In this document: positions 3,133 through 18,597 of the stretch, piece after piece | Layout: each line of letters opens with the position of its first letter | How positions within the stretch are numbered: position 1 is the stretch's first letter | DNA from: a virus | IMG/VR virus record: IMGVR_UViG_3300050122_000130 | Span: 31,489-95,488 of that record | Strand: one strand, 5' to 3' | Length of the DNA: 64,000 nt | The notes under the pieces: model-generated | Told to the model about the DNA's origin: nothing | Seen by the model: the letters and a program-made list of their open reading frames with translations, nothing else | The model's database searches: none | Made by a program: the position numbers and the translations under genes

Positions 3133-4119
3133 TTAGGAGATGTTGGTGACCTTGATCAGTTCACCGACAGCACCAGCAGATGCAGCACGCCACTTCGTTT
3201 CGATCGAGGCCTGCGCCGAAATCGCGGTCGAAGAAGCCGTTTGCGACGGGCTCACCACATAAGTGCCGGCACCTCCCGCCGATCCGGTGAGCTGCTGTGT
3301 GACCACGGTACCGGTCGTCACGCCGCTGCCAGTCAGGATCTGACCGGGCCCGAAACCGGAGACCACCGTGCCACCGACCGTGAGAACACCGTAAGTGCCA
3401 GTGATCGTGGTCGATGCAGCGTTCTGCTCCGGGATATTGACGTTGTAACGGCCGAGACCGTTCAGCGCTTCACCCGCGAGCAGCGGGGTGATCTGGCTGA
3501 CGATCTGCGTTCCGGTGGCAACGCCGGTACCGCTCAGAATCGAGCCGGGGTAGAAGTTGCCGGTCAATACGCCGCCGGCGGTGAACACGTCGCCGATGAG
3601 CGTGCTAGCCGTCGCATTGGCGGTCGCCGGCGCAATCGAAGATGCCGATCCAGAACCGCCGCTCGGCGTCGAGCCGGCAGCAGCAAACGAGGCCGAGCCA
3701 TCCGCATAGTTGGCGAATGCCTTCATGCCGACAGTGGCGGCGGCGGCACCGTTGTTGACCACCCACATGTCGACTTCGTTGTAACAAGCGATCTGGAAAC
3801 CGCTCTGCAGATATTGCACCGCGGTGCCCAGATAGGCAGTGATCATGCCGACCTGGCGTCGGGAGACGATACCCGCGGGCAAGCCAGAACCGAACGTGTT
3901 CAGCGTGGCCGGAGCATTGTCGTTGTCGATCGTGGCGTACGACGTCCAGCCGAAGCGGCCGATGACGCAGCCAGTGACGACAACACCGCTGATAACGCCA
4001 GCACCGGAGATGAGTCCGCCTTCGCCGGCGAGGACGGTAGCGCGCGGATTCGCCGAAGCAAAATCACCGGCATTGCCGGGCGCCTGGATCGAGTTAACCT
4101 GGTTGGGAAAGTCGGGCAT
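3133..4119 (-). CDS. Head decoration/cement protein with Gly/Thr-rich beta-repeat insertion
   Basis: FPNQVN..QAPG.AGDFASANPR N-terminus and GELIKVT end; two G.G..GTY.V-type repeats; lies between scaffold and capsid; ATG 4119 with GGAG RBS. Confidence 0.75.
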   Translation of the reverse strand: MPDFPNQVNSIQAPGNAGDFASANPRATVLAGEGGLISGAGVISGVVVTGCVIGRFGWTSYATIDNDNAPATLNTFGSGLPAGIVSRRQVGMITAYLGTAVQYLQSGFQIACYNEVDMWVVNNGAAAATVGMKAFANYADGSASFAAAGSTPSGGSGSASSIAPATANATASTLIGDVFTAGGVLTGNFYPGSILSGTGVATGTQIVSQITPLLAGEALNGLGRYNVNIPEQNAASTTITGTYGVLTVGGTVVSGFGPGQILTGSGVTTGTVVTQQLTGSAGGAGTYVVSPSQTASSTAISAQASIETKWRAASAGAVGELIKVTNIS

Positions 4120-4161
4120 CGAATTTTTCTCCTGTTCGATGAAAGTTGCGGGGAAGGGGAT

Positions 4162-4196
4162 CAAAAAAATCCCCCTCCCCGGAATGGGAAGAGGGC
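4162..4196 (-). terminator. Intrinsic terminator-like hairpin
   Basis: On -: CCCTCTTCCC-ATTCC-GGGGAGGGGG-ATTTTTTT. Confidence 0.6.
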
Positions 4197-4314: not shown

Positions 4315-5388
4315 TTACTGGTGGCCGATACGCTCGAGGTTCTTGGCCAGACCCGGATTGCGCTTCGCGATCTCGCCGGAGGCGGAAGTCTGCTCCGCGG
4401 AATCCATCGCGTAGGTCTGCTTTTTGCCGCCGTCCTTCGGAGGCAGAGCATCGAAGGCAAACTTGAGCATTTCGACGTTTGCCTCTTTCGGCGGCTTCTT
4501 GCCGGAAGCGATCTCGATCGCCTTGCTGAAGACCTGCGCAGCACTGTCGAAGGCCATGCCGCTGAGATTTCCGACGCGACCACGGACGTGATCCTTGGCA
4601 ACGGCGACTGCATCCATGCGGTCGCGCTCCTTCTTGATGCCGGCGTTGATGCCGGCCTGGATCTTCTCGTCCATCGCCTTGTCCTTCTCCTCGTCGTCTT
4701 CATCGTTGGCGGTTTCTTTGGGCGTCTCCGGATCGTGCTCTTCGTCTTCCTCGTTGACGTCCTTGTCCTTGGCGCCAGCGGTGAGCTTGCCGTCCTTGCT
4801 CTTCTTGGCATCTTTAGCCTTTTTGTCAGCCGCCTTCTTGGCTTCCATGCGCTTTTTCATGCGCTCGGCCTTCTCCTCGTCGGTCTCGGCCTCTTCGTCG
4901 TCGGCCATGTCCTCATCGTCCATGTCCTCGTCTTTGGCCTTGTCTTCCTTTTTGTCCTTCATATCGTCGGGGAAATCGTCGCACGCGACCTCGATCATAT
5001 CGAGCACGGCATCGAGCCCCTTCGGATCCAGCGCGCCGTCTTGCGCATACTGCGGATCGAGGTGACCCTCGACCGAAGCGTTGATCCATGCGCCAAGAAC
5101 CGGACGCTTGGCCTTGAAATTCTTCGCATTGATATTGCGAAGACCCTTGTTCAGGTCGATCTTCGCATCCATCGCAAGCTGCGGACGCAGGAATGTGGTC
5201 AGCATGCCATACGCGACAGTGCCGAGCGCCGACAGTTTAGCTTTCTTGATCATGGTCTTCTCCTTGATGTCAGGGTTAACGGAGTCGTATGCGCGCTCAG
5301 TCAGAAGTGACTCGTCGAGACCGAGCGCCACGATGGCCTCACGAGGAGTCTTGAATTTCTTGCGAAGTGCGTCACGCAATTTGCTCAT
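4315..5388 (-). CDS. Head scaffolding protein
   Basis: Highly charged D/E/K low-complexity, many A-[MFYQ]-D motifs; ATGA overlap with the protease stop; lies between protease and decoration genes. Confidence 0.75.
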
Positions 5389-7925
5389 AGGTGCAGCCCC
5401 AGGATTGCCGACTCGATCAGAGCCCACGGATCGATCGCGCCGTCGCCGACCACAACATCGCTACCCGCGCGGCCCTCAGAAACGAGCGCAACGTGATTTC
5501 CGATGATGTCGCGCATAACACCGTCGTAGGGCTTGCCCTCGTAAATGCCTGGCGTCATGTCAGCGCGGTAGCGATAGGCGCTGGACAATTCCTTTTTGCG
5601 TTTACTCTCGACCGCGTTGATGCCGCGCTCAGCCCAGATGACGAGGCTGTTTTTCAGGTGCGGATGTTCGAACGAAGCGTCGGTACCGGTCGAACCGACC
5701 ACGAGCTCAGGACGATGGTTGGCGGCGTTGACGCCGACATGCTGATCGAGCAACGGCAGATTGTTGAAGGTCGACTCCGCCTTCTTCAGCTCCGCAGGAT
5801 CTCGCAACAATTGATAGATACGGCCGGGATCGAGCCCCAGCTCCTTGTACTTCGGAATTTCCTTTCCGAGATACGGGTTCACAATCGCCTTCGAGATGTT
5901 CGAAATCTCGACGTGCATGCGGCCGTCGGCGTCGATCCTGCGCACCGTCACCGGCGCGCGATCGAACGCCAAGCCGTGGCGCTCGATCCCAGGAATGGTT
6001 GCCCGGTCGAACGCCAGCTCCTCGCCGTCGAGCTCGACGTCATGAATCTTGTCGGCGCCGTCGCCGTCCCAGCCGAACGGCACGATCTTGTCGTCTTCGT
6101 CGCGCGCCTCGATCGTGCGTGACGCGCCGATCGATCCCAGCCGCTTCATGTGGCTCAGCAGGCCCTTGAAATTGAAGTCGCCGCTGTAGCGGACGGTCAG
6201 CGTGTGCTCGGCATTGTACGGTTTCCGATCCCGCGCGAGGCCCGCGAACATGCCGTCCATCGCCTTCACACCGACTCGAGTCGCGAGATTCTTCTTCCTC
6301 GCAATGAGCCGATCGGCCAATTCCTTGTCATCGCCGACGGCTTCGCGGATCTTCGCGTCCGGGATCTTTGAGACGCGCTCGACCGACGCCGAGAGCTCAG
6401 CTTCGGTCATCGGTGCGAACAGCTTCGCGGCGTCCGGGTTCATGCCCTTGTCGCGCAGTGTGTCGAATTCCGTAACCTTGTCGCCGAACGCCGCCCCCTT
6501 GGCCCCCCCCTGAGCACGGAAGCGCAGCGAACCGCCTACATCCAGCGTGGTCGTCTTACCTTCGAGGATCCCTTGATTGTCTCCACCCGTACCAGCCGCG
6601 TCCCAATTAGAAAGCCAGGCATGGATAGCGAAGTCTTTAGCCGCTTCTTTGCGCTCAGCCGGCGTGAACTCGCTGATGTTTTTCTTTTCGAGCTTCCGCC
6701 ATTCCGTCGCAACATGCTGACCGCCTTCCACATCGCGGTAGGGCAGCGTCGCGGCGCCGGCGAGCTGGTACAGGCGCGCGGCGGCGCGCTCATTGTCCGC
6801 GTGGGCCTTAGTCGGGGCTTTCTTGATGTAAAATTTGGAACCGCTTTTATCTTCGTAGGTTCCGCCCTCGTTCGATCCCAGCTTGCCGCCCTTTTTCGAC
6901 AACTCGCCCATCTTCAAGGGTGAACTTGCGCCCTTCTCCGATGACTTTGCCTTTGAGGAGTTCCCGGAATGGGCTGATGCACTCGCAGAGGAACCGCTCC
7001 CGCTCCCGAATTTCCCGTCGTCTTTGCGCGGATGATCGCCCTCGTTCCATTCGTCGCTCGCTAAGGTTCCAAGGCTGCGCATGAACAGCGCCATATCGAA
7101 GGCCTTCGTGATGCCCAGGCCCTTGCTCACGGTCTTGAAGATGGGAGCAACCCCCGACCCGCCGCATTTATCGCACCCAGCGCCCGCGCAGGCCCCGCAA
7201 ACGCTATCCTGCGCAAGACGACGCTTCGCCAGCCGCTTCAGGCGGGCGTCAATCTTCCCGCCGACCGGGGTTCCGGTGTTGACGATCGTCGCCAGCGCCG
7301 GCTGATTATCGTCAGCGTGTTCCGGTTCCGCTTCTTCCTCGCGCGTCCACTTCGCGAAGTTCTCGCGCAGCTCCGCCCAATCCTCCGGCGCCATGTCCTG
7401 CGCCATGCCGAGATTTTCGCCAAGCACCCGGGTGACGTTCGGATGCATCGGCTCCGGCAGTTTGTCGAGCGGAAACCAGCCGAATTCCGAATGCTCCTCG
7501 TTCAGCTTCGGTTTGAACTTGTCCTCGACCGATTCAGTGAACGTGTGGAACATCATCCCGTTCGGAGTCTGCACCAGGTCGAGCAGCTTCTTCCGGCCGG
7601 TAGCGGCCGGCGCCGTCGATCCGAGCTCCTCGCGAGCTTCGCGATCGGCGCATTGCTCCGGAGATTCCCCTGCATCAGCTTTGCCGCCCGGTAGCGCCCA
7701 GTGCCCGACGTAGTTGTCCTTGCCTTCCTCGCCCGCGCGCTTGATCAGTAGCACATCGCCATCTGGTGCCACGAACACGATGCCGGCCGCGATCGGCAGC
7801 GCTGCGTCTTCTCCGGCTTCCTTGTATGCGATAGCAGCAGCCTGCTTTACAGGTCTTCCCAGCTTAGTGAGTTCAGCTATATTAGCCGATATCACTTTCT
7901 GGGATGATCCCTGCTTCAGTGGCAT
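5385..7925 (-). CDS. Multidomain prohead protease (C-terminal DUF2213) fused to Nudix hydrolase, Zn-finger and HipA/PI3K-like kinase domains
   Basis: Perfect Nudix box [22 protein letters not shown]; CGAC..CDKC; kinase-like YIKK..NE..WLSNWD..GDN..LDVGGS; DUF2213 [29 protein letters not shown]; ATG 7925 (MPLKQG). Confidence 0.85.
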
Positions 7926-8643
7926 TTTTGTTTTTCCATCTATTTGGCGGTCGCGTGCCAAGGCGCTTATGCGCTGCGCTCATCTTGGCTTTAGTTTCAT
8001 CGGAATGCTTGCGGCCAATGCTTAGCTGTCTCAGCATTTCCATATGTTCGGGAGACGAACGAAGACCGCTAGTGTTTCTTGTCGCACTCATTTTTTGGCG
8101 AGTTTCCAACGAAACCTTGCGACCTGTTTGAGTCTGCGATCTTTTCAGATTGCTCTCTGGAGTAATAATTTGATTAGCTCTTGCAACTCGGATTTTATCG
8201 CGAGTTTTTTCAGAAAGAGGTATCCCGGCTCGACTACTCAATACCAAACGGCCTGCATCCGTCATGATGTGCGGTTTCGACATTTTTTTGAGCGTTTCCG
8301 CTGAATGTCGTCTGCCTGCGCGTTTAGCTGCGACCTCTGGTGAAGACATCGGGCTGGTCTCTCCGCCCAATCCGACATTGTAGCCTTGTGATCGGTCAGT
8401 CGTCCGAAAGAACCTAATGAACTCTATTTCTAGGCTCAGTATTTCGTGCTTCTCACCAAGCGCCAGAACTTGAGGAACCAAGTTGTTAGTCCCGTAGCGC
8501 ATGATAGCCTGATGAACGGGTAGATTAGATCCTCGTCTCGCATCACTGCAATGCCTCATCCAACGATGTCTTATCGTTTTTGAGGTAATGCCAAAATATC
8601 GCTTTCCATTCGGAAATTCGATCACATAGAGTAGGTAAGCCAT
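7882..8643 (-). CDS. GIY-YIG homing endonuclease with NUMOD3 repeats
   Basis: [18 protein letters not shown]...H, GYN..GG, repeated G.K/RHS.ETK.KMS. Confidence 0.9.
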
Positions 8644-8892
8644 CTGGGCGCTCCAACGCTCATTTCGGTTAGAGGCCGTTCAGTGTGTCGAGCACTGTAC
8701 GGCCTCGTCTTCTTATACTAGCTCCTACTGACTATCGCAACGCTCTCTGCACTGCCAAAACTTGAAGTGCCTATGCCTTGAAGCAGTCCTCACAGCGGTC
8801 CGAACTGATGACCCTGGGACTGACGCTGACATACTTCTCGACGGATGGCTTCTGGCCGCAGTCCGTGCAGACAGGTTCAGCCGGTTTCTTTT

Positions 8893-9174
8893 TCACTTCG
8901 GTTTCTTTCGCCCGCGCGTATCGAGCGCGGTTCGATTATTGTTGCGGCCCTTGTTCACTGCCGGCGGACGCAGACCGAGCCGGCGCTGATAGGCGCGGAC
9001 GTGCGTGGCGCTGAAACCGCAGACACCGATCTCGGCCGCGAGTATTTCCGGATCCAGACCCTGCGGCGCGTCCCTCAAAATCTTTTCGATCTCTGGGGAG
9101 TCGTACGGGTCGCGAAACTTCATTGTCGAACTGGTGCTGATCCACCAATCATCTGAATTCCCGAAGTTCTCCAT
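8893..9174 (-). CDS. Hypothetical protein, possible HTH
   Basis: ORF coupled to the GNAT gene; LAAEIGV...HVRAYQRRLGL. Confidence 0.5.
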   Translation of the reverse strand: MENFGNSDDWWISTSSTMKFRDPYDSPEIEKILRDAPQGLDPEILAAEIGVCGFSATHVRAYQRRLGLRPPAVNKGRNNNRTALDTRGRKKPK

Positions 9175-9605
9175 CAGCCAAGACGATAGGTCAGCGTCAC
9201 AGCTTCTTCGGTACGCCCCTGCTTCTTGGCGATCGCACGCATGGCGCTGTTGCGCACATGCGTTCCTGACTGAATCGTTACTGCTTTGAGTTCAGCGGCC
9301 TTCTCGACCATTGCCGCCCACAAAGCGTTGTAGAGCCCGCGGCCGCGGAATTCCGGGAGCGTATAGCTCTGGAAGATCCACACGCGCCCGGTATCCTTGT
9401 CAAAATTCCAGGTCATCACCGCGGCGGGTATCATTTCGCGGCCGTTCTGCGCGTAGGCGATAAAGGCGTTAAGCGACGTAAAGACGTTCAGCGTCCCGTC
9501 ACCGTACCCCTTCTCGACACATTCCGCCCAGCCGCGCACCGCGAGCTCGAGCGCTGGCGTATTGTTCAGGCCCTCGACGTACACGATCTTGATCTCGTCG
9601 CTCAC
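9174..9605 (-). CDS. GNAT family N-acetyltransferase
   Basis: Motif A YTLPEFRGRGLYNAL and motif B N.AM..I.KK.G. Confidence 0.85.
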   Translation of the reverse strand: MSDEIKIVYVEGLNNTPALELAVRGWAECVEKGYGDGTLNVFTSLNAFIAYAQNGREMIPAAVMTWNFDKDTGRVWIFQSYTLPEFRGRGLYNALWAAMVEKAAELKAVTIQSGTHVRNSAMRAIAKKQGRTEEAVTLTYRLG

Positions 9606-9699
9606 TCGTCAAACTCCGATCATCTGAACGAGCGGCCACCGAATCCAGATCATCCGCCGCGTACGCCAAAAAACCAGACGTGAAGATCGTACTGCATTT

Positions 9700-9864
9700 T
9701 CAAATTCGGCCCACGAGCAGCAAGATGATCAAGATCACGACGATCAGACCGAGACCGCCGCCGACTCGATAACCACCGCCATAGAACGGACCGCCGCCCA
9801 TGCCGCTGAAGCCGCCGAGCAGCGCGATAACGAGAATAATCAGAATGATGGTGCCGATCGACAT
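9700..9864 (-). CDS. DUF3309-family small membrane protein
   Basis: MSIGTIILIILVIALLGG...YGGGY..GGGLGLIVVILIILLLVGRI; GGAGG RBS. Confidence 0.8.
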   Translation of the reverse strand: MSIGTIILIILVIALLGGFSGMGGGPFYGGGYRVGGGLGLIVVILIILLLVGRI

Positions 9865-9878
9865 GGTGGCCTCCTTCG

Positions 9879-10352
9879 TTATTGCCGCGCACCGATCGCG
9901 ATATACTCGCCGGGCCCGGCATTCTTGTTGTCGCGATCGAGCGTCACGCGAAGATCGGTCGATCCGTTCAGCATCAGGACCAGGTCCGACGACGAACTGA
10001 TGATGCCAGGGGGTACCATCGGCGAATTCTGCACGGTGGTCTTCCAGTGTGCACTCTCGAAGGCGTTCTCCAGGTTCAGCGCCAGATCGCCGCATTTGCT
10101 GTCCTCGAGACAGAAAATGGTCACTTCGCCCGGCTTGTCCTTCAATTTCGTGGTCAGGTCGTCAATTTCAGCCTGACTGAGCTCCGGCCAGATGGTTCTC
10201 GCCATCCGTTGGGCCTTTGCCGGGCTTACGGTGCCCGCTGGTGCGGTGACGACGCGGGTGACTACTGGCGCGCGGGTCACGCTCAAATAACCCACAGAGG
10301 CCGCCACAGCGACTAACGAGGCCACGATCGAGGGGATGACATGCTCTCTCAT
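9879..10352 (-). CDS. Hypothetical membrane-anchored/secreted protein
   Basis: N-terminal hydrophobic segment; ORF in the operon. Confidence 0.6.
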   Translation of the reverse strand: MREHVIPSIVASLVAVAASVGYLSVTRAPVVTRVVTAPAGTVSPAKAQRMARTIWPELSQAEIDDLTTKLKDKPGEVTIFCLEDSKCGDLALNLENAFESAHWKTTVQNSPMVPPGIISSSSDLVLMLNGSTDLRVTLDRDNKNAGPGEYIAIGARQ

Positions 10353-10572
10353 GGTATCCCCGCTGGTCGATCGATTGCAGGAGGCGGTTCAGCCGCCGGA
10401 GCCGGCGCGTAGACCGGCGCCGGGCCCTTGTCGCGCTTCATCACGACCGAGACTTTCGGCTTGTGCGGGATCGGCAGATCAGCGCCATAAGCGACCGAGA
10501 AAATCAGCGCACCCACCGACACCACTAAAGCGAACACAGATAGTGCCAGCGATATTCGATACAGCATCGTGC

Positions 10573-10926
10573 TCAATCCTGCGTTTCTTTGGCGAAGTCG
10601 CCGTGTTTGTCGACCGGCGCCGGCAGCAGCGGCATCTGTACGATATCGGAACGCTTGTGCCAACTGTCCGGGCAGAACTGAATTTTGCCGTCGGTGATGA
10701 TGTAATGGCAAAGGATATTTTGCTTTTCACCACGGCCGAGATTGGTTTGCGGGTCGATCCCACCAGTCCAGCGAACGAAGGTCTGCGCAAAGCTTGGCGA
10801 GAACGTTGGCTTCTGCACGTCGCCATTGAAGGTCCAACTATCGGGCAGGATGTGAACTTCCTCGCATGCCGGACACCAGTGAGCGTGACCGGTAATTGTT
10901 TTGCGGAGTATCGGGCTGACCTGCAT
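10573..10926 (-). CDS. DUF6527-like Cys/His protein (paralog 1)
   Basis: HWCPAC...H, WTFNGD..KPTFSPS, CHYIITDGKIQFC.D..H. Confidence 0.75.
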   Translation of the reverse strand: MQVSPILRKTITGHAHWCPACEEVHILPDSWTFNGDVQKPTFSPSFAQTFVRWTGGIDPQTNLGRGEKQNILCHYIITDGKIQFCPDSWHKRSDIVQMPLLPAPVDKHGDFAKETQD

Positions 10927-11026
10927 CAGGAATATCTCTGAGCGACGATCATCACAATCACCATGAAGATCACCATCATCGCCACGATTCCAGCGGCCTG
11001 CCATATCTCTTTACGTCCAGAACGCC

Positions 11027-11419
11027 TCACAGCCGCGCGCTCGTCATATACTTGTCGTCAGGGACATCTGGCATCTCAACCGTCTGTCCGCGCAGCGAAT
11101 GCGTGCAGTCACCGAGAAACTCTATCATCCCATTGCGAATGAAGTAGTGGCAGACCGTGCTCGCGACACCGCGCTGATATTCCTTCATGTCCGGTGTGTT
11201 CACCCGCATATTGATGCTCGGCGAGAACGTCGGCTTGTACCGGTTGTTGTTGAACGTCCACTTCGCACCAGATGAGTTTGGCTCGTCAACGTTAATCTCG
11301 TGGCCATAGCCACAGCCTGGACACCAGTGACCGTAGCCACCCTGCGGCCAATACTTGCGATCGAGCGCTACCAGCTTGCTCACGGCGTCAGCTTTCCATC
11401 GCGCAAAAATCCATGCCAC
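11027..11419 (-). CDS. DUF6527-like Cys/His protein (paralog 2)
   Basis: HWCPGC...H, WTFN....KPTFSPS, CHYFIRNGMIEFLGDCTH. Confidence 0.75.
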   Translation of the reverse strand: MAWIFARWKADAVSKLVALDRKYWPQGGYGHWCPGCGYGHEINVDEPNSSGAKWTFNNNRYKPTFSPSINMRVNTPDMKEYQRGVASTVCHYFIRNGMIEFLGDCTHSLRGQTVEMPDVPDDKYMTSARL

Positions 11420-11853
11420 TCATTGTTCGAACCCATGAAGAACGAGCCGGCGCCCGCGGCGCACGTCTTGCCGTTCTTGTCGACGGTGATTTTCTCGCCA
11501 ACAGTGCCGTGCCGTACCCAGCACCGGTGCTCGTGGTCTTCCTTCATCGTGCAGTTCGACGCGCGGCCCTCGATCGCCCACGAATGACCGTCGGCGTGCT
11601 TGCAGTAGATCGACAGGCCGTCATAGCCCACGCGCGGATATGAATTAGGCCCAGCGCCGTTTGTGCGGCGTGCGGACCAAAGCGCGCCCGTCGGCATCTC
11701 GTTCCAGCGAACCTCGCGACCGGTAGTCGTCTCACGCATGATCGGCGAGCTCACGCCATCCTTGTCGAAGCCGCTCATCTTCGGCTTGCCCTCAGCATCG
11801 AGGACGTGTTCCCACCAGGTCGTCTCGAAGACAGCGTGCGGATCGATCGTCAT
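11380..11853 (-). CDS. Divergent DUF6527-related Cys/His protein
   Basis: RASNCT...HRCW.RHG...ITV....AGSF...WHGFLRDG.L C-terminus. Confidence 0.5.
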   Translation of the reverse strand: MTIDPHAVFETTWWEHVLDAEGKPKMSGFDKDGVSSPIMRETTTGREVRWNEMPTGALWSARRTNGAGPNSYPRVGYDGLSIYCKHADGHSWAIEGRASNCTMKEDHEHRCWVRHGTVGEKITVDKNGKTCAAGAGSFFMGSNNEWHGFLRDGKLTP

Positions 11854-11881
11854 GACAAGCAATCTCCGCAATCCGACAAGC

Positions 11882-11911
11882 AAAAGGCCCCGACTGTAAA
11901 GTCGAGGCCTT
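11882..11911 (-). terminator. Intrinsic terminator
   Basis: On -: GGCCTCGACT-TTAC-AGTCGGGGCC-TTTT. Confidence 0.65.
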
Positions 11912-12026
11912 GGCCGTTATTTATTGCAAGTCCGTGTCGCCACGAGCCCGGGCGACCGCGCGAAGCTTACCTCAACATCTCCGACAAATGCTAAGGGGCG
12001 CCGGCTCGGCCGGCGGCAGTATTGGG

Positions 12027-12275
12027 CTATCGCTGGAGAAAGTAGCCGTGGCCACCTCCGAAACCGCCAAGCAGGCACGAGATGATCTCAGCTAGCAGAT
12101 AGATAATTCGGATCGATATCGACAGCATGATGATTATCAGCAAAACCTGCGTGATCCACGGAATTCCGGACATGCTCTCGAGCCAAGGTCCGATCAGCCG
12201 GCAAATCTTCAATGCCGCGATGATACACATAAACCAAACGATTAACTCGACAACGAACCAGATTGAAAAGCACAT
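12027..12275 (-). CDS. Small two-TM membrane protein
   Basis: Two hydrophobic segments; GGAGG RBS. Confidence 0.55.
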   Translation of the reverse strand: MCFSIWFVVELIVWFMCIIAALKICRLIGPWLESMSGIPWITQVLLIIIMLSISIRIIYLLAEIISCLLGGFGGGHGYFLQR

Positions 12276-12544
12276 CGCTCAGCCTCCAAGGGTTAAGCCG
12301 ACGCAACGCGCGAGAGTTTAGTTCGTTCCTCTCACACCCAACCCAGAACCCAAAAAATGAAAGCCCAAAGCGGAAGCGCGATCGCTACCGCCAGCACCCA
12401 AGGCCAGGATGCGGAATAGATTATTTTCAAGACAGGTGATCCATTTTGACCATGCTTCCACTTCAAAGCCTGACTTAAACTTTCCCCATGAGACAGCATC
12501 CTCGCCCAATTTGGGTCGACAGCGGTTTGTTTCCGCCGATTGAT

Positions 12545-13378
12545 CTACGAGAAGCCCGGCACGATCGGGATGCTCACACATCGGCAGTTAATCAACTGGC
12601 CTGGATGGATGAACTCTTTGACCGCAGGGTCATACCATCCTTTGGTGACGTCGTAGGTTTTGCCGTTGTTCTTGACATGCGTCGGGCGCGGGACCTTCCC
12701 CCCGCCTGAATGTCGCCATGTCGCGGTAGTGATGCCGTTCTCAATGAACCGCACGCGCGACATGTTCGCCGTCGCTTTATTGTTCTGATCTTTCGATATC
12801 AGCGCCGCACGCCGCTTCGTCACGCCGTACCGCTTCTCAAGTTGTTTCGAAAGTGTTCCAAGGTCCCGGCCAGCCGATACCGACCGCATCACGAGTCCTT
12901 CGACTTCCTGCAGGTGCTGGCTGGCGATCGATTTGATCAACCCAACATTCTCCGCGGTCGTCGCCTCGACCACGTCCTTCATGGCTTGCGACATCTGAAA
13001 CCGAACAGAGAAGCCGCCTTTTCGCAAGATCGAAGCGAGCTGCTGGTCCGTCCGCTTGTGCGCGGCCGTCGCGAAGTATTTCGCCAGTTGCGGTGCCGCC
13101 CAATCGAATCTCTTCAGCCAGCGCTTCTTCAGCAACTCGATCGCTTTCTTGAGCGCGTTTGCCGGCAGGATATCGTCCATCGCCATCGCTGGCGGGTTCT
13201 CGCGGTACGCAGCCTTGATCCAGTAATCGACGGATGCGTTCATTTCCTTGATGAGCCGGTCCAGCTTCTTGCGGTAGGCGACGCTGAGGCCGATGTTCGG
13301 ATGCACCGGCCGCAGCTTCTTCGGCTTCGAGGCCTTGGATGCTTGGCCAACTGAAGTCGCGCGAAATATTCCGTGCAT
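12545..13378 (-). CDS. Minor head protein, MuF / SPP1 gp7 family (short form, no toxin extension)
   Basis: LRPVHPN.G...Y, RAALISKDQNNKA, W.HS....PRPTH, PGQLINCRC. Confidence 0.9.
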   Translation of the reverse strand: MHGIFRATSVGQASKASKPKKLRPVHPNIGLSVAYRKKLDRLIKEMNASVDYWIKAAYRENPPAMAMDDILPANALKKAIELLKKRWLKRFDWAAPQLAKYFATAAHKRTDQQLASILRKGGFSVRFQMSQAMKDVVEATTAENVGLIKSIASQHLQEVEGLVMRSVSAGRDLGTLSKQLEKRYGVTKRRAALISKDQNNKATANMSRVRFIENGITTATWRHSGGGKVPRPTHVKNNGKTYDVTKGWYDPAVKEFIHPGQLINCRCVSIPIVPGFS

Positions 13379-13389
13379 CGAACTTTCCA

Positions 13390-13658
13390 ACGTAGGCCCG
13401 AACGAACGACATATCGTCGGGCACGATCGATTGCATTTTTAGCAGCTGGTCGACCATGGATTTGACGTCGGAGTAAATCTCCTCCGGCGTGGCCATGGCC
13501 CAGAACTTACCGCTGCCGTAGAGCGTCACAGCGGTCTTGCTGGGACCGATGGCCATATCCATCCCGTAGACGACATCAACCGGCGCCTTCGGCAGGGCCG
13601 GCGCGATCGCCGCGGCCGCAACGCCCGTCAGAAACGCTCTGCGGTTAAGTTCGGGCAT
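13390..13658 (-). CDS. Twin-arginine-leader protein with TerL-like and capsid-like short segments (frame stays open to 12837, overlapping MuF)
   Basis: LNRRAFLTGVAAAAIAPA leader; 3' end uncertain. Confidence 0.5.
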
Positions 13659-13947
13659 CGAGCGCGCGCCTCCCGATCGGCGGGTCACCCATCAATTGCG
13701 ACGTGACATTCTCGTGCTCGAGATAACCGTCTCTGCTAGGATCGTATTGCGCGGCAGCGCGGTAATCCGGCTTGTCGACAGCGTACTCTTTCAGCCGATT
13801 GTCGACTGAACCTGCCATGCGCTTGCGGTAACCGCGCATATATTCCTTCATGTATCGATTGTACGATTCTCGATCGGCCCATTTCGACGGCGTGGCACCT
13901 TTCGGTCTACCGCGTGGACGTCCAGTTGGATTGCTCCAATAGCTCAT
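13645..13947 (-). CDS. Hypothetical AT-hook DNA-binding protein
   Basis: GRPRGRPKG motif, basic helix. Confidence 0.55.
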   Translation of the reverse strand: MSYWSNPTGRPRGRPKGATPSKWADRESYNRYMKEYMRGYRKRMAGSVDNRLKEYAVDKPDYRAAAQYDPSRDGYLEHENVTSQLMGDPPIGRRALDART

Positions 13948-14213
13948 CAGTGCACGCGCCCGCGGCGCTGATGCTCCCACCAGATGAAGCGGTGATAGCC
14001 CCACCAAAACGGATTGGCGAATGAGTGGCGGACCACGAGCGCACGATTGTCGAGCGGTATGGTGTGTTTGTCATCAACGCAGCCCATACGGCTGTTGCAC
14101 GATGGATAGATGCAGTCGTCCCACGGACAGGCGGTCATCATGCAGCCCCATAAGGCCGCACCAGCGGCCGAGCGACGCGCGTGTTGCGCTGCTCAGCCCG
14201 ATCTAGCGCAGAA

Positions 14214-14489
14214 TCACTCTTTGCGAAAGGAGGTTCCCGACGTATCGCCGGAGCCCTCCCCGTTTTTTGAGTTCGAACGCTCCAGATCCTTCACTTCCTC
14301 GAGCATCGCGTCGAAGTCGGCCTCGCCGCTATCGAGCGAACCTTCGTGCGCCTCGAAGGCCTGGTTCATCCGAGAGTCGAAGCCCGGCATACGGTCGATC
14401 AGCGCCTGCGCGCGCTCGTCCATCTTCCGCTTGCGCTCGGCCACCATCTGCGCTGCGAGACGCGCCTTGCTGATCGGTGCGTCCGCCAT
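14214..14489 (-). CDS. Hypothetical coiled-coil protein
   Basis: ATG 14489 with GAGG RBS, helical composition. Confidence 0.55.
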   Translation of the reverse strand: MADAPISKARLAAQMVAERKRKMDERAQALIDRMPGFDSRMNQAFEAHEGSLDSGEADFDAMLEEVKDLERSNSKNGEGSGDTSGTSFRKE

Positions 14490-14490
14490 A

Positions 14491-14925
14491 TCAGCCTCGT
14501 CCCGCTTCGCCGCTCGATCGATTGTCCGACTCAGATGTAGGTTCAGCAACTGCGACAGCAGCAGCGTTCGCTGCATCGGGCGCGTCCCTCTTGAAGCCGG
14601 CCTCTGCGAAGATCCTCATCATGGCCTCGGCGCCGAGCGGGTCGCCGATCTTGACCGCTCCGCGAATCAGCGCCGATGACGAATACATGCCGGCGACCAC
14701 GCCCATGATCTGCTCCGCGCAATAGTTGCGGTGCTTCTGCTTGTCCTGGACGACGTCGATGCCGGGAAACAAATCGATCACGGTATTGAGCTGGTCGCGC
14801 GCGCGCGCCGCGAGGAAGCGCCCATACCGCAGGCTCACGTCCATCAGCCACGTCTGGTCATCACCGGTGGTGATTTCCTTTTTGATCTCGTCCAGGCGCC
14901 GCTGGTAGGCTTCATGGTTGAACAT
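14491..14925 (-). CDS. Hypothetical protein
   Basis: 144-aa ORF, TGATG-coupled to the upstream ORF. Confidence 0.6.
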   Translation of the reverse strand: MFNHEAYQRRLDEIKKEITTGDDQTWLMDVSLRYGRFLAARARDQLNTVIDLFPGIDVVQDKQKHRNYCAEQIMGVVAGMYSSSALIRGAVKIGDPLGAEAMMRIFAEAGFKRDAPDAANAAAVAVAEPTSESDNRSSGEAGRG

Positions 14926-15089
14926 CAGTCGTCGTCTTCCATCTCGACTTCGTTGCCATTGTCGTCGACCACCTTCACCTTGAACGGTGGGTCGTCTTTC
15001 TGCACTACAACGACTTCGCCGTCCGGTCCAGCACCGATCGGACCCTGCTCGAGCGTCGAGGTATCAATCTTCTTCGGCTCTTTGGACAT
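14925..15089 (-). CDS. 54-aa acidic protein immediately downstream of the portal-ART gene (not in ORF track)
   Basis: ATG 15089, 1 nt after the portal stop; MSKEPKKIDTSTLEQGPIGAGPDGEVVVVQKDDPPFKVKVVDDNGNEVEMEDDD; TGATG overlap with next gene. Confidence 0.6.
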   Translation of the reverse strand: MSKEPKKIDTSTLEQGPIGAGPDGEVVVVQKDDPPFKVKVVDDNGNEVEMEDDD

Positions 15090-15090
15090 T

Positions 15091-18000
15091 TCAGACTTCC
15101 TCGAGCTCGATGTGAGTGCCCTTGACGGACTTCACATGAAAGCGGCTGCCCGACTTGAACAGCACCTCAGCCTCACCTGGATGAGACGATAGCTTCTCGA
15201 TGTCGCGTCCGTTCTTGCCGTGCACCGTGTAGCTATAATCGCCGGACCACGTTCCCTGGTTCTTGCTAGTTGAGGTGAAGCCACGTTCTTCGATGATGTG
15301 CCCGGGAATATAGGCCTTGAACTGCTCCGGCGTCAGCGACGCTTTGCGGTACGTGGTTTGCGTATACTTCGGCAGCTTCTCAAGCCCGGAATTCAGCGAC
15401 TTCATGAACTTGTATTGCGCGACAGTCATCGTGCCACGGCGCAACTCGGAATTCACCTTGCCGTAATGCGAACCACTGTACGCGATGATCGGAACAGCGT
15501 CCGCGCCACTGATGTGCTTGGACAAGCCTGCCGATTTGACCTTCTTTTCCGCTTGCGCGACGTAGGCCTTGGCAGCATCACCGCCACCAAACAGCGCTTC
15601 CATCGCTTCGTAGTGCGTCTTCAGCTCAGGATCGGCCGCAAACTTCTCGTCGAGCTCCTTCTGCGCTTTAGCCTCTTTTTCGGCCTTCTCGGCAGCGGCT
15701 TTCTTCGCGTTCTCTTCGACCTTCTTCGCCGCGGCCTCAGCCGCAGCTGATTCAGTCTGCTTGACCTTGGCGAGCGTGGCTTTGTAGTCGGCGACCTTCT
15801 GGTTCAGCTGCGCGTCGCTCAGGCCTTCCTTGCCGGCGTACTTCGCATTGAACTCCTTGATCGCAGTGACAGCTTCCGGCTCGGAGCTCGAGATCGGTAG
15901 CGTCGTTCCTTTCTTGGCTTTCTTCAGCTCCTCCGGCGTGGCCTGCGGAACAGTGGGCTTGTCCTGCAACAGGCCCATCTTCTTCATCTGATCCTTCATC
16001 GCAGGCTTCATGTTTTCCGAGAGCTGCTCGGCAAAAGCCGGATTGTACTTGAGCAGGTTTGCAGCGGTATCGGTGTCGTTCTTCTGCAGCGCCTCAGCCA
16101 CCGCGCCCAGGAATTTCGGATAGGTGCCGCCTTCACCCGACATGAACTCAGCCAGCGCGTTCAGCTTCGCTGGCTCAGGCGTCTTTTCTGTAACCGCTGG
16201 ACCTTCCCACGATTTAGCAATTGCAGCTTTTTTCTCCGGAGTCAGAGCAGCAGCTTCCTTCGCTGCCTTCTTCTCGGCATCCGTCATCGGATGGCCCTTA
16301 TACATCAGCTTGCCGTTTTCGGTGTACTTCTCCAGCTTCATGCCGAGCGACTTGGCTTGCGCCGGCATCGAAACTGAGGGCCAGCCCATGGTCTCCATGA
16401 TCTCTTTTGCGGTTGTGCCCTTCTCGAGGAGATGGCCGATGATCTCCTTTTTCGAGTTGAACTTCGCACCAACGAAGCCCTTGGCTACATCTGCAAGAGC
16501 CTTAGCCGCGCTTGACTTGCCGCTCGCCGGCGTACCGCCGCCCCCTGTGGTCGAGAACTTGCCGTCCTGATCGCGCTTGACCTTGCTCTCGTCGAACTGG
16601 CCATCGTCGAACGCCCAGACATCGGCCGCGATCTCGGAGGGCTCGATCGCTTCGTCAGCAGCGCCGTCGACTTCCTTGTTGTCGCGCGATCCACTACCGC
16701 CTTCGCCGCCACCGCCGGCTCCGCCGCCCTGAACCATGCCCTGGTCGGCTGGCGGCTCCGGTAGATCGTCTGGCTCGAGTCCATTGTACGGCGAGTCATC
16801 GTCAGCGATGACGATCTCACGAACTTCTTCTTGGCCGATAACGCCCATGTCGACGTAAATCTGATGGGTCTCGGCCTCGGTCTTCTTGACCTCAGATTCG
16901 CCCTTCTCGTCCAGGCTCCAGAGCGGTTCGAACTCGAAGCCGATCGAGGGATCGACTTCACCGAACAGATTGAGCTGAATAAAATCAATAATGCGCTTCA
17001 GCTTGTCGCGGAACAGGTTCTCCTGCATCGCGTGCACAAGATCGTAGAACACCCGAAGCTCCCCCTCGCTCGAGGCGTTCAGGCCCGAAGGCGTGATGCC
17101 GAGCAGCACGATGAGCGGGATACCCGACACCGATGACATCTGCTCCTGGCTTTGCGCCTGCAGGTGGTCGAGCGTCCCGAGGGGGGTTGAGATGTTGAAG
17201 AACTCTTCGGTCTCCTTGTCCAGCACCATGGCGCCGGCATTGCTGCGCGCCTTGTTGAACAGATCGATGCGGTCAAGCACCTCCTCGCCGCCGCCCTGCA
17301 GCAGCGATTGAGCGTTCGTGTAGACGCCCGAAACAGAGAAGCTTTCGATCAGGTTGGTCACGGCCTGTCGGGTGCGCAGCCAGTTGTCGACATATGGCTT
17401 GGCCATCTGCGACATCGACAGGCCGCCGAATGCATACGACGGCTTGAGAATGTCCGGCACCGGCCGGCCGACGAACGTCAACAGGCGCGAGACGTGCACC
17501 TGCTTCGCCATCGCGAACCAGACTTGCGGATTGTACCAATCATCCGCCAGCGGGTCATTCGCGTTGTAATTGACGGGGTAGCACCAGATCGGCTCGATAT
17601 GTTTGATGTTCTTCAGCGAGCCCTTTTTGAATTGAGCCTTGCTGGTCTCATCGCTTCCATTGCCTAGGTCGCTCTTGAGCTCGTCCGGATCGTCACTGTC
17701 GCCGGTGTCAATGTAGAGGTGGCTCCGCCCCATCCAGCCATCGAACTCTGCGACGGTCTTGAACTTGCCCCGCAGGTCGAGGCGCTTCATGTCCTCCTCG
17801 ATCGCCTTCAGCTTCTTCTGCAAAGCCTCGTTGCGTTTGCGTTGTGCGATCTCCTCCGGAGTGGGCTCGTCGTCTTCCTCGTCGTCATCGGCCACGGCGC
17901 CGCCGGCAGGGGCACCATCCGCATCATCGTCCTCTTCGTCCTCGAGCGGCGCATCGGGCGCTTTGTCGGCGCCAAGGCCTTCATCCGCCTCGTCGGCGTC

Positions 18001-18597
18001 CTCGTCGCTGGCATCGCTCTCAGGTTCGGCTTCACCGGCAATCGTGAGCCGGATCCACTTCCTGGTCATCTCGGTCGCAAGGCGTTCCGAGATCCGGCGA
18101 TACTCCGGCCGCTGGGTCAGCTGCGACAGATACGCGTACCCAAGAAAGCCGATGCCCTCCGAGAAGGCCTCGCCGATCGGGTTCGCGAAATTCCACGCGT
18201 TTGTGTACGACTCGTTGGCCCAGGTCGCGATCGCGCCGTCCAGCGCCATTTCCGGCTCGGCGCCCTGGGGTAGAACGCCCGGAGGTGGCTTGAATGCCTG
18301 GAACGGGTTGTAGAGCGCCGCTCCTTGGCTCTGCGAGGCCCCTGAACGCGTTTTACGTGCGGCCCGCGCCATAACTTCGGAACTTATCTTCATCGGCGCA
18401 CGGGGCTCGACAACGGCCGCATGGTGCTTCTCAAGATCGACAGCTGTGCGCGGTGGCACTTTGTCCGCCGCGGGCGCCGGCTTGGCTGTGGGAGCCGGCG
18501 TCGCCGCGACAGCAGGGGTGTGTCGCATCACACCGAGAACGGCCTCCTTGATGGTTTCTGAAGTCGGCCGCTGCCGCTTATACCGGGTCACCGTCAC
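15091..18597 (-). CDS. Portal protein (DUF1073 family) with long C-terminal extension ending in an ADP-ribosyltransferase domain
   Basis: Portal: FLGYAYLSQLTQRPEY, HVSRLL, YVDNWLRTR, GIPL..LLGITPSGLNASSEGE...FYD; ART: AYSG..Y..VN..LR, TYRK, GFTSTS, EAEVLF..G.RF.V. Confidence 0.9.
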   Translation of the reverse strand: MTVTRYKRQRPTSETIKEAVLGVMRHTPAVAATPAPTAKPAPAADKVPPRTAVDLEKHHAAVVEPRAPMKISSEVMARAARKTRSGASQSQGAALYNPFQAFKPPPGVLPQGAEPEMALDGAIATWANESYTNAWNFANPIGEAFSEGIGFLGYAYLSQLTQRPEYRRISERLATEMTRKWIRLTIAGEAEPESDASDEDADEADEGLGADKAPDAPLEDEEDDDADGAPAGGAVADDDEEDDEPTPEEIAQRKRNEALQKKLKAIEEDMKRLDLRGKFKTVAEFDGWMGRSHLYIDTGDSDDPDELKSDLGNGSDETSKAQFKKGSLKNIKHIEPIWCYPVNYNANDPLADDWYNPQVWFAMAKQVHVSRLLTFVGRPVPDILKPSYAFGGLSMSQMAKPYVDNWLRTRQAVTNLIESFSVSGVYTNAQSLLQGGGEEVLDRIDLFNKARSNAGAMVLDKETEEFFNISTPLGTLDHLQAQSQEQMSSVSGIPLIVLLGITPSGLNASSEGELRVFYDLVHAMQENLFRDKLKRIIDFIQLNLFGEVDPSIGFEFEPLWSLDEKGESEVKKTEAETHQIYVDMGVIGQEEVREIVIADDDSPYNGLEPDDLPEPPADQGMVQGGGAGGGGEGGSGSRDNKEVDGAADEAIEPSEIAADVWAFDDGQFDESKVKRDQDGKFSTTGGGGTPASGKSSAAKALADVAKGFVGAKFNSKKEIIGHLLEKGTTAKEIMETMGWPSVSMPAQAKSLGMKLEKYTENGKLMYKGHPMTDAEKKAAKEAAALTPEKKAAIAKSWEGPAVTEKTPEPAKLNALAEFMSGEGGTYPKFLGAVAEALQKNDTDTAANLLKYNPAFAEQLSENMKPAMKDQMKKMGLLQDKPTVPQATPEELKKAKKGTTLPISSSEPEAVTAIKEFNAKYAGKEGLSDAQLNQKVADYKATLAKVKQTESAAAEAAAKKVEENAKKAAAEKAEKEAKAQKELDEKFAADPELKTHYEAMEALFGGGDAAKAYVAQAEKKVKSAGLSKHISGADAVPIIAYSGSHYGKVNSELRRGTMTVAQYKFMKSLNSGLEKLPKYTQTTYRKASLTPEQFKAYIPGHIIEERGFTSTSKNQGTWSGDYSYTVHGKNGRDIEKLSSHPGEAEVLFKSGSRFHVKSVKGTHIELEEV

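Follow-up and report, generated by a model that had tools for sequence, protein, structure and literature searches.

Enzyme cassettes joined to the portal and capsid protease of an uncultured tailed phage, with conserved A-x-D sites and a shared leader at their boundaries

The loading of enzymes into phage heads by fusion to head proteins, together with the hypothesis that they are injected, has been described before (Iyer et al., 2017, PMC5512222; Iyer et al., 2022, PMC9503650). These papers describe effectors on portal and MuF proteins, among them portal-ADP-ribosyltransferase (ART) and Nudix-peptidase fusions; the enzymes (ARTs, Nudix hydrolases, kinases and others) are carried either by the portal or by an assemblin-like serine peptidase that processes the capsid and lies at the C-terminus. 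Zincin-like peptidases are favoured there as processing enzymes, and the text searched names no junction tag, linker motif or cut-site consensus. In the MuF toxins of temperate phages, a head-module protein likewise bears a toxin or enzyme domain at its C-terminus that varies and can be an ART, and motif, linker and cleavage are all unmentioned in that paper (Jamet et al., 2017, PMC5576092). In T4, the arginine ART Alt and IPI-III are loaded into the procapsid as separate proteins targeted by a short removable N-terminal peptide, trimmed by the prohead protease gp21 at a hydrophobic-x-acidic site with Glu at P1, and ejected with the DNA. Many inner-body proteins of phiKZ-like phages are cut by the gp21-like gp175 at a short small-x-acidic motif, S/A/G-x-E, and their fragments ejected; these come from separate genes in a phage lineage different from the one studied here. 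To our knowledge they have no shared tag. In the herpesvirus UL26-type assemblin-scaffold and the Pa193 gp24/PB1-like fusions, a protease with a His/Ser/His centre is joined to a C-terminal scaffold and frees itself at short consensus sites.

Here a window of 64,000 nucleotides was analysed from the complete 95 kb genome of an uncultured tailed phage. The large terminase gene lies directly ahead of the portal-cargo gene, and the order in the head module is protease, scaffold, decoration protein and capsid protein. An earlier note on this DNA had claimed that the portal and protease genes bear large enzyme cargo, and all features it named are present where it placed them (Table 1). The cargo repertoire in relatives matches that of the polyvalent proteins of Iyer et al. 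In contrast to the MuF toxins, the carriers are a portal and a protease, and a Pfam domain search found no MuF domain in either. The present analysis sets out the processing logic, A-x-D plus a His-Pro-Arg (HPR) tag, and the exchange of cassettes between portal and protease. These cutting rules make enzyme loading of heads testable.

Table 1. Features of the head genes, with positions in the window.
Feature	Position	Strand	Evidence or remark
Portal-cargo gene P0001, 1168 aa	15091..18597	(-)	PF06381 252.8 bits (residues 155-579); ADPrib_exo_Tox 37.8 bits (residues 1024-1159)
Portal N-terminal segment, residues 1-120, predicted propeptide, last motif MALD120	18238..18597	(-)	AxD conserved in relatives
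Portal core, residues 121-~650	16648..18237	(-)	Pfam and PHROG portal matches
Junction, residues 645-690: GAAD, IAAD and WAFD sites, leader, Gly-rich linker	16528..16665	(-)	sequence motifs
Cargo part 1, residues 691-989: weak DUF3489-like winged-helix signal, then Lys/Ala/Glu-rich helical region	15631..16527	(-)	sub-threshold Pfam, E 0.063
Cargo part 2, residues 990-1168: arginine-type ART	15094..15630	(-)	Pfam; alignment to Tre1 6drh
Cargo-protease gene P0004, 846 aa from probable ATG 7925	5385..7925	(-)	
N-terminal 40-residue module MPLKQGSS...AIAYKEAG	7806..7925	(-)	phrog_2423, E 2e-13
Nudix hydrolase, residues 56-189, ending at MAQD189	7395..7796	(-)	PF00293 77.3 bits (residues 56-175); PDB Nudix matches
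Acidic linker and zinc knuckle, residues 190-289, bounds LAQD252 / KAFD289	7095..7394	(-)	read from sequence
LASD303 site and leader	6966..7073	(-)	disordered in AF2 model; homology to relatives' portal cassette starts here
Protein-kinase-like domain, residues 346-569, ending at KAMD569	6255..6926	(-)	AF2 and fold comparison
'DGDG' region, residues 578-652, between LARD578 and LAFD652	6006..6230	(-)	found ahead of DUF2213 in some relatives
DUF2213 capsid-maturation protease, residues 668-858 (fold from 674)	5388..5960	(-)	PF09979 160.4 bits (residues 674-840)
Scaffolding protein	4315..5388	(-)	matches C-terminal half of protease-scaffold family phrog_2229
Major capsid protein P0125	1954..3057	(-)	543 phage records match, annotated major capsid or head protein
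Predicted capsid propeptide, residues 1-50, ending LAMD-QG-LAMD50	2908-3057	(-)	alignment to PB1-like capsid cut

The portal ORF is matched by the solved portals Pa193 gp19 and E217 gp19 (E 3e-32), and its residues 323-650 align to residues 205-533 of Pa193 gp19. About 520 extra residues form the C-terminal cargo and, as had been proposed, end in an R-S-E ART. The catalytic motifs are intact (TYR1084, F-S1109-T-S, E1142-A-E1144), and the best solved ART relative is Tre1, a T6SS ART of Serratia proteamaculans (PDB 6drh/6dre; E 6e-14 for 6drh), to which the R, STS and ExE motifs align. A PAAR/T6SS spike delivers Tre1, which has an immunity protein, whereas the ART described here would, if delivered at all, come from a phage head. 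The winged-helix call in the first part of the cargo is weak.

The protease ORF is open from a TTG at 7961 (5385-7961, minus strand), and the 846-aa form is present in the sequence collection. The Nudix, zinc-finger, kinase-like and small 'DGDG' segments that had been placed N-terminal to DUF2213 were all located in it, the last without a family. The Nudix box is intact (G-x5-E-x7-R-E-x2-E-E-x-G) and is followed by a consensus 'LGxAxDM' kept among relatives, and the zinc knuckle consists of two CxxCxGxG motifs at residues 255-270. The core of the kinase-like domain (residues 346-566) was modelled by AF2 at a pLDDT above 90 and is most similar in fold to CtkA (3akk; Z 14.7, rmsd 3.5, 202 residues; VIA), followed by LepB (Z 11.1) and HipA (Z 11.0; both VIA); its motifs, which include invariant residues, comprise a Gly loop GSNEGG, YIK380, NE, H-x-W-L-S-N-W-D454, DN and DVGG477. 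The 'DGDG' region has low AF2 confidence; some relatives also have it, immediately N-terminal to DUF2213. In Pfam no matches were obtained for the N-terminal 40-residue module, the zinc-knuckle segment or the 'DGDG' region, and no family was recognised for the latter.

The fold of the DUF2213 domain (AF2 pLDDT 89) resembles T4 gp21 (5jbl; Z 10.7, rmsd 2.8, 129 residues) and herpesvirus proteases (Z 7-8.8), and H741, S793 and H823 are invariant. Modelled fold, invariant residues and the gene order given above support its assignment as an assemblin/gp21-type capsid protease. Unlike most relatives, the protease here has no fused scaffold. The 370-aa ORF next after it (4315-5427) was identified as the scaffold, whose start codon (ATG, 5388) shares bases with the stop codon of the protease gene in an ATGA. 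In difference to the UL26-type and Pa193 gp24/PB1-like proteins, the scaffold is a separate, ATGA-coupled gene and the enzymes are N-terminal, while the protease fold, catalytic centre and linkage to procapsid proteins are the same. The scaffold bears eight hydrophobic-AxD sites, kept at consensus level in the fused relatives.

A-x-D motifs had been proposed to mark the cargo boundaries. The sites were verified; they fall within linkers, and relatives share them. In the protease they are MAQD186-189, LAQD249-252, KAFD286-289, LASD300-303, KAMD566-569, LARD575-578, LAFD649-652 and LAFD664-667; 8/8 lie outside folded segments (P ~3e-5), LAFD667 within the disordered N-flank of the DUF2213 domain. 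The portal carries MALD117-120, GAAD645, IAAD656 and WAFD661. Both LAMD sites expected in the capsid propeptide were found as well (LAMD41 and LAMD47, the second ending at D50), although the gene falls outside the span to which they had been assigned. In the four head proteins [LMFIVWY]A.D occurs 24 times where shuffles predict 5.9 (Poisson P 1.6e-8, about 4-fold), whereas it is depleted in the 55 other ORFs (12 observed, 22 expected); the rates differ with a Fisher P of 3e-11.

A single experimentally defined cut, in the capsid protein of a distant relative, backs this motif: in the PB1-like phage KPP12, Edman sequencing placed the mature capsid N-terminus SNFTAP... directly after SAMD64 (PMC3474789). 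PB1-like phages also use a DUF2213 protease-scaffold (9b40_G), D50 of the capsid LAMD50 aligns with D64 of the PB1-like SAMD64, and 10/12 homologues have a hydrophobic-AxD at this position. The portal N-terminal A-x-D is found at the aligned position in 106/112 portal relatives, and PB1-like portals carry VAMD72. Residues 1-93 of the Pa193 portal are missing from LC-MS and from density, and the E217 and Pa193 portals are visible only from residue 94-97 to 528, of 765. A-x-D is thus very probably the cut site of the DUF2213 protease, judged from the KPP12 N-terminus, alignment and conservation, and cleavage at it is well supported, if indirectly. Cutting need not occur at every A-x-D, since the predicted sites differ in their P1' residue (S, A, E, D, M, G, R, V); FAAD989, which is part of a conserved block of helix-like character, may have a structural role instead.

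At the portal junction the A-x-D sites are followed by the proposed leader, which reads F-D-E-S-K-V-K-R-D-Q-D-G-K-F, a degenerate form in which V-K-R replaces H-P-R. One common leader had been claimed to start both the kinase and the ART cargo; the similarity is not significant for the single pair (BLASTP E 15), but as a family the tag is unmistakable. Its consensus is [FW]xExxHPRx3G[KQ]F-GSGG, it is present in at least 3,970 protein clusters with up to 18 copies per protein (median spacing 281 residues), and it is always N-terminal to the Pfam cargo domain. A literature search found no paper describing it. In 12 relatives, E-[VI]-A-x-D-V-[FW]..A-[FM]-D-x-x-x-F-[DQ]-E-S-K-[HV]-[KP]-R is kept as a block, after the portal core or after a kinase cassette. 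Six relatives carry the kinase cassette (60-67% identical) on the portal, between core and ART cassette, with LASD plus tag at one end and AMD/LARD at the other. This comparison supports cargo that can be swapped between portal and protease, as the earlier note had anticipated, with breakpoints at A-x-D plus leader.

We propose that the procapsid portal and protease double as enzyme carriers, and that A-x-D cutting frees tagged cargo which is ejected into the host, a reading that we consider moderately probable. The portal carries a winged-helix-like part and a Tre1-like arginine ART on its inward-facing C-terminus, and the DUF2213 protease carries Nudix, zinc knuckle, CtkA-like kinase and the small 'DGDG' domain on its N-terminus. 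The cargo would be encapsidated because it is covalently joined to proteins required inside the procapsid, in contrast to the separately targeted T4 proteins. During maturation the gp21/assemblin-type serine peptidase would cut after the Asp of hydrophobic-Ala-x-Asp (P1 is Glu in T4), remove the capsid and portal propeptides, dismantle the scaffold and cut the linkers between cargo modules, as homology and conservation suggest. Both large enzyme cassettes would then start with the conserved tag, which lies after the predicted cut and would remain on the cargo, whereas the T4 targeting peptide is removed; it would most likely serve retention in or exit from the capsid and not protease recognition. 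The freed enzymes would exit together with the DNA and be active ahead of phage gene expression, the ART modifying host proteins on arginine, the kinase phosphorylating host or defence proteins and the Nudix enzyme destroying ADP-ribose, NAD-derived or other nucleotide signals. From the original interpretation the domain calls, the A-x-D cut site (indirectly) and the swappable cargo are retained.

Alternatively, the cargo is fused and encapsidated but undelivered, being tethered or trapped in the head or active only late in the producing cell. The portal stays in the capsid after infection, late expression in the producing cell is certain from gene position, and in the E217 and Pa193 maps the C-terminal extension of the portal gives no density, as would be expected if it were either removed or disordered. 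Possible roles would be nucleotide clean-up, the modification of phage or host proteins while heads are assembled, or a part in handling DNA at the portal via the winged-helix segment. We regard this as unlikely, given that the enzymes are of host-directed effector types (the Tre1-like ART and CtkA-like kinase; zeta toxin, PBECR RNase and topoisomerase IB in relatives), that cut sites conserved at every junction argue that release matters, and that T4 Alt is a precedent for ejection.

Quite improbable is the reading in which A-x-D and tag are recombination or linker junctions of shuffling cassettes, like the pre-toxin motifs of polymorphic toxins, and the polyproteins work uncut. It would explain why the tag marks the breakpoints of cassettes that have moved from one gene to another, why unrelated portal and protease families have the tag in common, and why tag and flanks are disordered linkers. 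However, A-x-D is also found at the capsid maturation site, where cleavage was shown in a relative, it is kept in regions without cassette exchange, namely the portal N-terminus and all along the scaffold, and it is depleted in non-head ORFs. That the cargo consists of polymorphic toxins freed at lysis against competing bacteria, as proposed for the temperate-phage MuF toxins, is very improbable: in its favour are the closest match of the ART, the T6SS antibacterial effector Tre1, and the zeta toxins and RNases carried by relatives, but MuF domains are absent from both proteins, a secretion or entry domain was not detected in either, and the cargo would lie inside closed capsids, from which a free toxin has no evident route into competitor cells.

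Across the wider family of tags, only some 1/4 to 1/2 of the copies have an A-x-D ahead of them, even at loci with a DUF2213 gene. Because four portal families and at least two protease families are associated with it, the tag is a general mark of cargo and is not specific to DUF2213. Besides the effectors named above, cargo in tag-bearing relatives includes LPD3, LPD13, PBECR1, InPase, ART-PolyVal and ddrB-ParB, and in other phages tag plus cargo can form a stand-alone gene, located between those for the portal and DUF2213.

The window covers the right-hand 64 kb of one contig of 95,488 bp, whose ends share about 126 bp and which therefore represents a complete phage genome. All genes of the head cargo system are found on the minus strand, and their order is listed in the table. 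The stop codon of the protease gene and the start codon of the scaffold gene overlap as ATGA at 5385-5388, and in many relatives the two are one chain. In relatives the portal and protease genes are adjacent or nearly so, whereas here they are split by the accessory block, which also contains several ORFs without an assigned family. In the 699-aa large terminase a match to LAGLIDADG_3 (residues 516-570) reached 21.5 bits against a Pfam cut-off of 22.5; an intein or fused homing endonuclease may account for this segment, which lies in the nuclease half.

Features of the head cargo region and of the accessory block within it
Feature	Position (nt)	Strand	Remark
Large terminase	18594-20693	-	adjoins portal gene
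Portal-cargo gene	15091-18597	-	follows terminase
Accessory block (about 7 kb)	7962-15090	-	between portal-cargo and cargo-protease genes
DUF6527 tandem paralogues (two)	10573-11004 and 11027-11419	-	in accessory block
GNAT acetyltransferase	9174-9605	-	in accessory block
GIY-YIG/NUMOD3 homing endonuclease	7882-8643	-	in accessory block
Cargo-protease gene	5385-7925	-	ATG at 7925; 846 aa
Scaffold	4315-5388	-	separate gene; ATG overlaps protease stop
Decoration-like protein	3133-4164	-	
Major capsid protein	1954-3057	-	

The portal-cargo protein (P0001, 1168 aa) matches Phage_portal_3 (PF06381, DUF1073) over residues 155-579 with 252.8 bits (curated cut-off 33.8), and the solved portals of the Pseudomonas phages Pa193 (gp19) and E217 (gp19) match it with E-values of 3e-32 to 5e-32. 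As the alignment to these solved portals stops at residue 650, about 520 residues are extra, in agreement with the earlier note, which had seen about 500 extra C-terminal aa ending in an ADP-ribosyltransferase (ART). The ART comprises the last 180 residues and was recognized by PF03496 (ADPrib_exo_Tox; 37.8 bits, cut-off 23.4) and PF01129. Among solved structures the T6SS effector Tre1 is closest to it (E 6e-14), and the R, STS and ExE motifs (TYR1084, STS1109-1111 and EAE1142-1144) are all present and align to those of Tre1. Between portal core and ART follow the leader, a short Glu/HPR motif with a Gly-rich linker that is called tag hereafter, a weak DUF3489-like signal (sub-threshold in the Pfam search, E 0.063) and a helical Lys/Ala-rich stretch. 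In MuF polymorphic toxins the MuF domain is placed N-terminal to the toxin, whereas a profile search for PF04233 and PF06152 at E 0.01 detected no MuF domain in P0001 or in protein P0002.

Near the start of the profile-matched region, at about residues 190-250 (17848-18030, minus strand), the portal has a strongly acidic low-complexity insertion of D/E runs with A/G/P, which has no counterpart in the alignment of PB1-like portals. A portal-ART relative of 1,422 aa (P0127) also contains a Hint-type domain (PF13403, precomputed Pfam), which suggests an intein or self-splicing element inside the portal-cargo gene of that relative.

The second cargo carrier, the cargo-protease P0004, consists of an N-terminal module of 40 residues (phrog_2423), a Nudix domain, an acidic linker, a zinc knuckle (CxxCxGxG twice), the tag, a kinase-like domain of 220 residues, a 'DGDG' region of 75 residues and DUF2213. 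All N-terminal parts that had been named before, i.e., Nudix domain, zinc finger, kinase-like domain and DGDG region, are indeed present ahead of the protease, and the chain unites at least two unrelated effector domains with a virion domain in the head module, the combination that defines polyvalent proteins. The Nudix domain (PF00293) scored 77.3 bits (cut-off 21.1), and the Nudix box G-x5-E-x7-R-E-x2-E-E-x-G, as read from the sequence, is intact at residues 93-115. Pfam and PDB sequence searches gave no match for residues 326-570 of the kinase-like part, even at E 10, and nothing for the DGDG region, the zinc-knuckle linker or the N-terminal module. In an AlphaFold2 model of residues 297-660 the pLDDT exceeds 90 at residues 346-566, and the tag and the DGDG region are of low confidence. 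Model comparison placed the domain closest to H. pylori CtkA (Z 14.7, rmsd 3.5, 202 residues), with LepB, HipA and Rio kinases clearly below (Z 10-11). According to the model, residues 346-566 adopt a protein-kinase-like fold of the CtkA type. Across 24 relatives there is no variation at G362-G367, K380, N452/D454, D461-N462 and D474, which correspond to the Gly loop, the beta3 Lys and the Asp/Asn of catalysis and metal binding. One tag-bearing relative matched PI3_PI4_kinase.

For the C-terminal domain of P0004, DUF2213 was detected at residues 674-840 with 160.4 bits (curated cut-off 22), and PHROG families of head maturation proteases match with an E-value of 5e-91. The model of residues 655-858 (pLDDT 89), folded from residue 674 on, superimposes on the T4 prohead protease gp21 (5jbl; Z 10.7, rmsd 2.8, 129 of 165 residues) and on the herpesvirus assemblins of VZV, PRV, HCMV and HSV (Z 7-8.8), and the best Foldseek match is the EBV protease (E 2.7e-4). 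The predicted catalytic residues, H741, S793 and H823, do not vary among 41 sequences. By profile and model the DUF2213 domain is a capsid protease of the gp21/assemblin type, with putative proteolytic activity. In most relatives, as in Pa193 gp24, DUF2213 is fused to the scaffold, whereas in the window phage the scaffold has its own gene.

The presumed cut site of this protease is a hydrophobic residue followed by A-x-D. All A-x-D sites listed in the earlier note exist, and the motif is commoner in the head proteins than by chance. Compared with within-protein shuffles, [LMFIVWY]-A-x-D was observed 24 times in capsid, scaffold, protease and portal where 5.9 were expected (P 1.6e-8), and 12 times in 55 other ORFs where 22 were expected (P 0.015), a roughly ten-fold higher rate in the head proteins (Fisher P 3e-11). 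The shuffles rule out a composition artefact as the source of the motif. The depletion in the 55 non-head ORFs may stem from selection against unintended cuts, or from chance. None of the eight sites in the protease chain lies within a folded segment, with such segments accounting for 72% of the chain (P about 3e-5).

The sites are also conserved among relatives. The N-terminal portal site MALD120 is kept as A-x-D in 106 of 112 relatives despite variable flanks. At consensus level A-x-D is found after the Nudix domain, after the kinase, before DUF2213 ('AFDR') and repeatedly along the scaffold, and a block E-[VI]-A-x-D-V-[FW]...A-[FM]-D stands ahead of the ART cassette in 12 relatives. FAAD989, located before the ART, was rejected as a cut site, as it belongs to the conserved block KFAADPELKxHYEAM with Pro at P1'.

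An experimental anchor for the cut site is provided by the PB1-like Pseudomonas phages, which have the same portal type, a DUF2213 protease-scaffold and the same capsid protein as the window phage. Their capsid protein reads G-S-A-M-D64-S65-N-F-T-A-P, and for the PB1-like phage KPP12 the N-terminus of the major structural protein was determined by Edman sequencing (PMC3474789). Comparison of both sequences places the start of the mature chain directly after A-M-D, and the map of the E217 capsid protein begins at residue 66 (PMC10329688). In the window capsid protein LAMD50|AQP aligns to the KPP12 cut position, and hydrophobic-A-x-D is present at this site in 10 of 12 capsid homologues from related contigs. 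PB1-like portals carry VAMD72; for E217 and Pa193 the portal models start at residue 94-97 and stop at 528, out of 765 residues, and residues 1-93 of the Pa193 portal are absent from LC-MS. In Bcep43, YAMD34 occurs in the capsid protein, FAFD9 before DUF2213 and GAQD directly before a portal-borne Nudix domain. Cleavage after A-x-D is probably the specificity of this protease lineage, a reading that extends by sequence from the sole proven cut, in a distant relative. The portal of the PB1-like Pseudomonas phage PHW2 (contig L114, 1746-4043) has a C-terminal extension of 237 residues without a tag, and the C-terminal extension of PB1-like portals is not visible in the E217 or Pa193 maps.

That cargo can be swapped at A-x-D plus leader, as had been proposed, is seen in six related portals of about 1,490-1,540 residues, which consist of portal core, kinase cassette and winged-helix/ART cassette. 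The kinase cassette shares 60-67% identity with residues 287-581 of the window protease, and the final cassette shares 47-54% with residues 640-1168 of the window portal. Some phages thus have on their portal the cassette that the window phage has on its protease. The kinase cassette is bounded by LASD and the tag at one end and by AMD/LARD at the other. Both cargo architectures are common in metagenomes: proteins of the type Nudix-[variable]-DUF2213 gave 421 matches, with ART, ParB or zeta toxin among the variable parts, and portal-cargo proteins gave 852; about half of the 120 listed among these have an ART.

The tag that heads these cassettes had been described as one leader shared by the two window cargoes. 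As a pair the two copies are not significant (BLASTP of portal against protease, E 15), and the claim therefore rests on the family, where it stands: among 123 protease relatives 40 non-redundant copies fit (A/G/L)-x-D-(1-2 residues)-[FW]-x-E-[SG]-[DK]-H-P-R-x(2-4)-G-[KQ]-F-G-S-G-G, with Glu and Arg invariant. A tblastn search of the phage collection with the 36-residue leader, a short query of low complexity, gave no match, and a search for related loci with the whole protease gave four. A degenerate DNA pattern for the tag matched more than 109 viral contigs, and in-frame extension of the matches yielded 112 ORFs of at least 108 residues each. A profile built from 102 tag copies and run against 1.84 billion representatives found at least 3,970 clusters with E-values of 1e-3 or below. 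Proteins of 7,334, 5,313 and 2,155 aa (among P0242, P0260 and P0241) gave 18, 16 and 9 matches to the profile, where 18 is the maximum per protein and the median spacing is 281 residues (best 150 matches). A viral ORF of 1,354 aa (L034:955-5016, plus strand) has six tags with W-[VI]-[AIV]-D before each.

Pfam domains start only beyond the tag and its Gly-rich linker. The carriers comprise four portal families, MuF, DUF2213 and a Mu-type protease, and the cargo comprises ADP-ribosyltransferases, topoisomerase IB, Nudix, zeta toxin, InPase, PBECR1, LPD3, LPD13 and ddrB-ParB, which equals the repertoire published as 'polyvalent'. Domains of T4SS or T6SS did not appear among carriers and cargo of the tag-bearing proteins. 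Since the tag is seen with several protease families, it is unlikely, on this sequence distribution, to be a recognition element of DUF2213. An A-x-D precedes the tag in 7 of 29 cases with DUF2213 in the locus and in 9 of 42 and 9 of 57 without it, counts that come from short loci and a crude rule for picking the Asp. Being downstream of the predicted cut, the tag would remain on the cargo, where it may serve retention, unfolding, exit or something else.

The mechanism put forward in the earlier note, in which fused enzymes are packaged, cut free and ejected into the host, likely holds as far as the cutting step; free cargo in virions, its ejection and its host targets are putative but plausible. 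The fusion architecture and the injection hypothesis are already published: Iyer 2017 (PMC5512222) reports polyvalent proteins, fusions of effectors to portal and MuF proteins, and a peptidase of the assemblin-like type that is 'always at the C termini' of such proteins, and Iyer 2022 (PMC9503650) considers portal-ART fusions possible and proposes packaging and injection. Linker, junction or HPR motif are not mentioned in the accessible parts of Iyer 2017 and Jamet 2017 (MuF toxins; PMC5576092). As far as these sources, Iyer 2022 and the wider open literature are accessible, they contain no tag, junction motif or A-x-D site, and no open-access paper with typical tag strings was found. The window locus adds a well-supported processing grammar, one experimental anchor for this grammar and a clean case of a cassette transferred between two head genes.

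We tentatively propose, as a possibility that we hold to be somewhat less than even, that the 20-25 residues of [FW]-x-E-x-x-H-P-R-x3-G-[KRQ]-[FW]-G-S-G-G are a universal header of head cargo, whatever the family of portal and protease, each placed after a cut site of the phage's own prohead protease, that the tagged enzymes are cut free in the capsid, and that the retained tag controls how the cargo is kept, unfolded or passed out through the tail. If true, injected phage effectors could be listed in any metagenome by means of the tag, which could also be used for loading foreign proteins into phage heads, and with A-x-D a specificity would be defined for DUF2213 proteases for the first time. 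To our knowledge, T4 and a few others are the sole phages for which it is understood in detail how enzymes that disarm the host are loaded, released and injected in the first seconds of infection. For a very large and almost unstudied class the locus offers a checkable grammar of carrier protein, A-x-D cut site, tag and enzyme. If this grammar holds, the mature ends of every cargo become predictable and the specificity is set for the DUF2213 family, whose users include the therapeutic Pbunavirus phages.

In the whole genome of the window phage only two tags were found, and the same scan found none in any gene of the accessory block. Many phages also encode the tag in stand-alone genes (110-380 residues; tag at a distance of 15-50 residues from the start), which often lie between those of the portal and DUF2213. 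In T4-type head cargo the prohead protease removes a short N-terminal targeting peptide. In the stand-alone genes of other phages 15-40 residues stand ahead of the tag, often with an Asp. Several stand-alone cargo genes, from the small ORFs of L010, L031, L035, L049, L066, L073, L102 and L104 whose tag is N-terminal, show a second mini-motif of alternating His and hydrophobic residues directly ahead of the tag, e.g., LHIYFHTYD, IHIHLHRHATQD and IHIHVHTRD.
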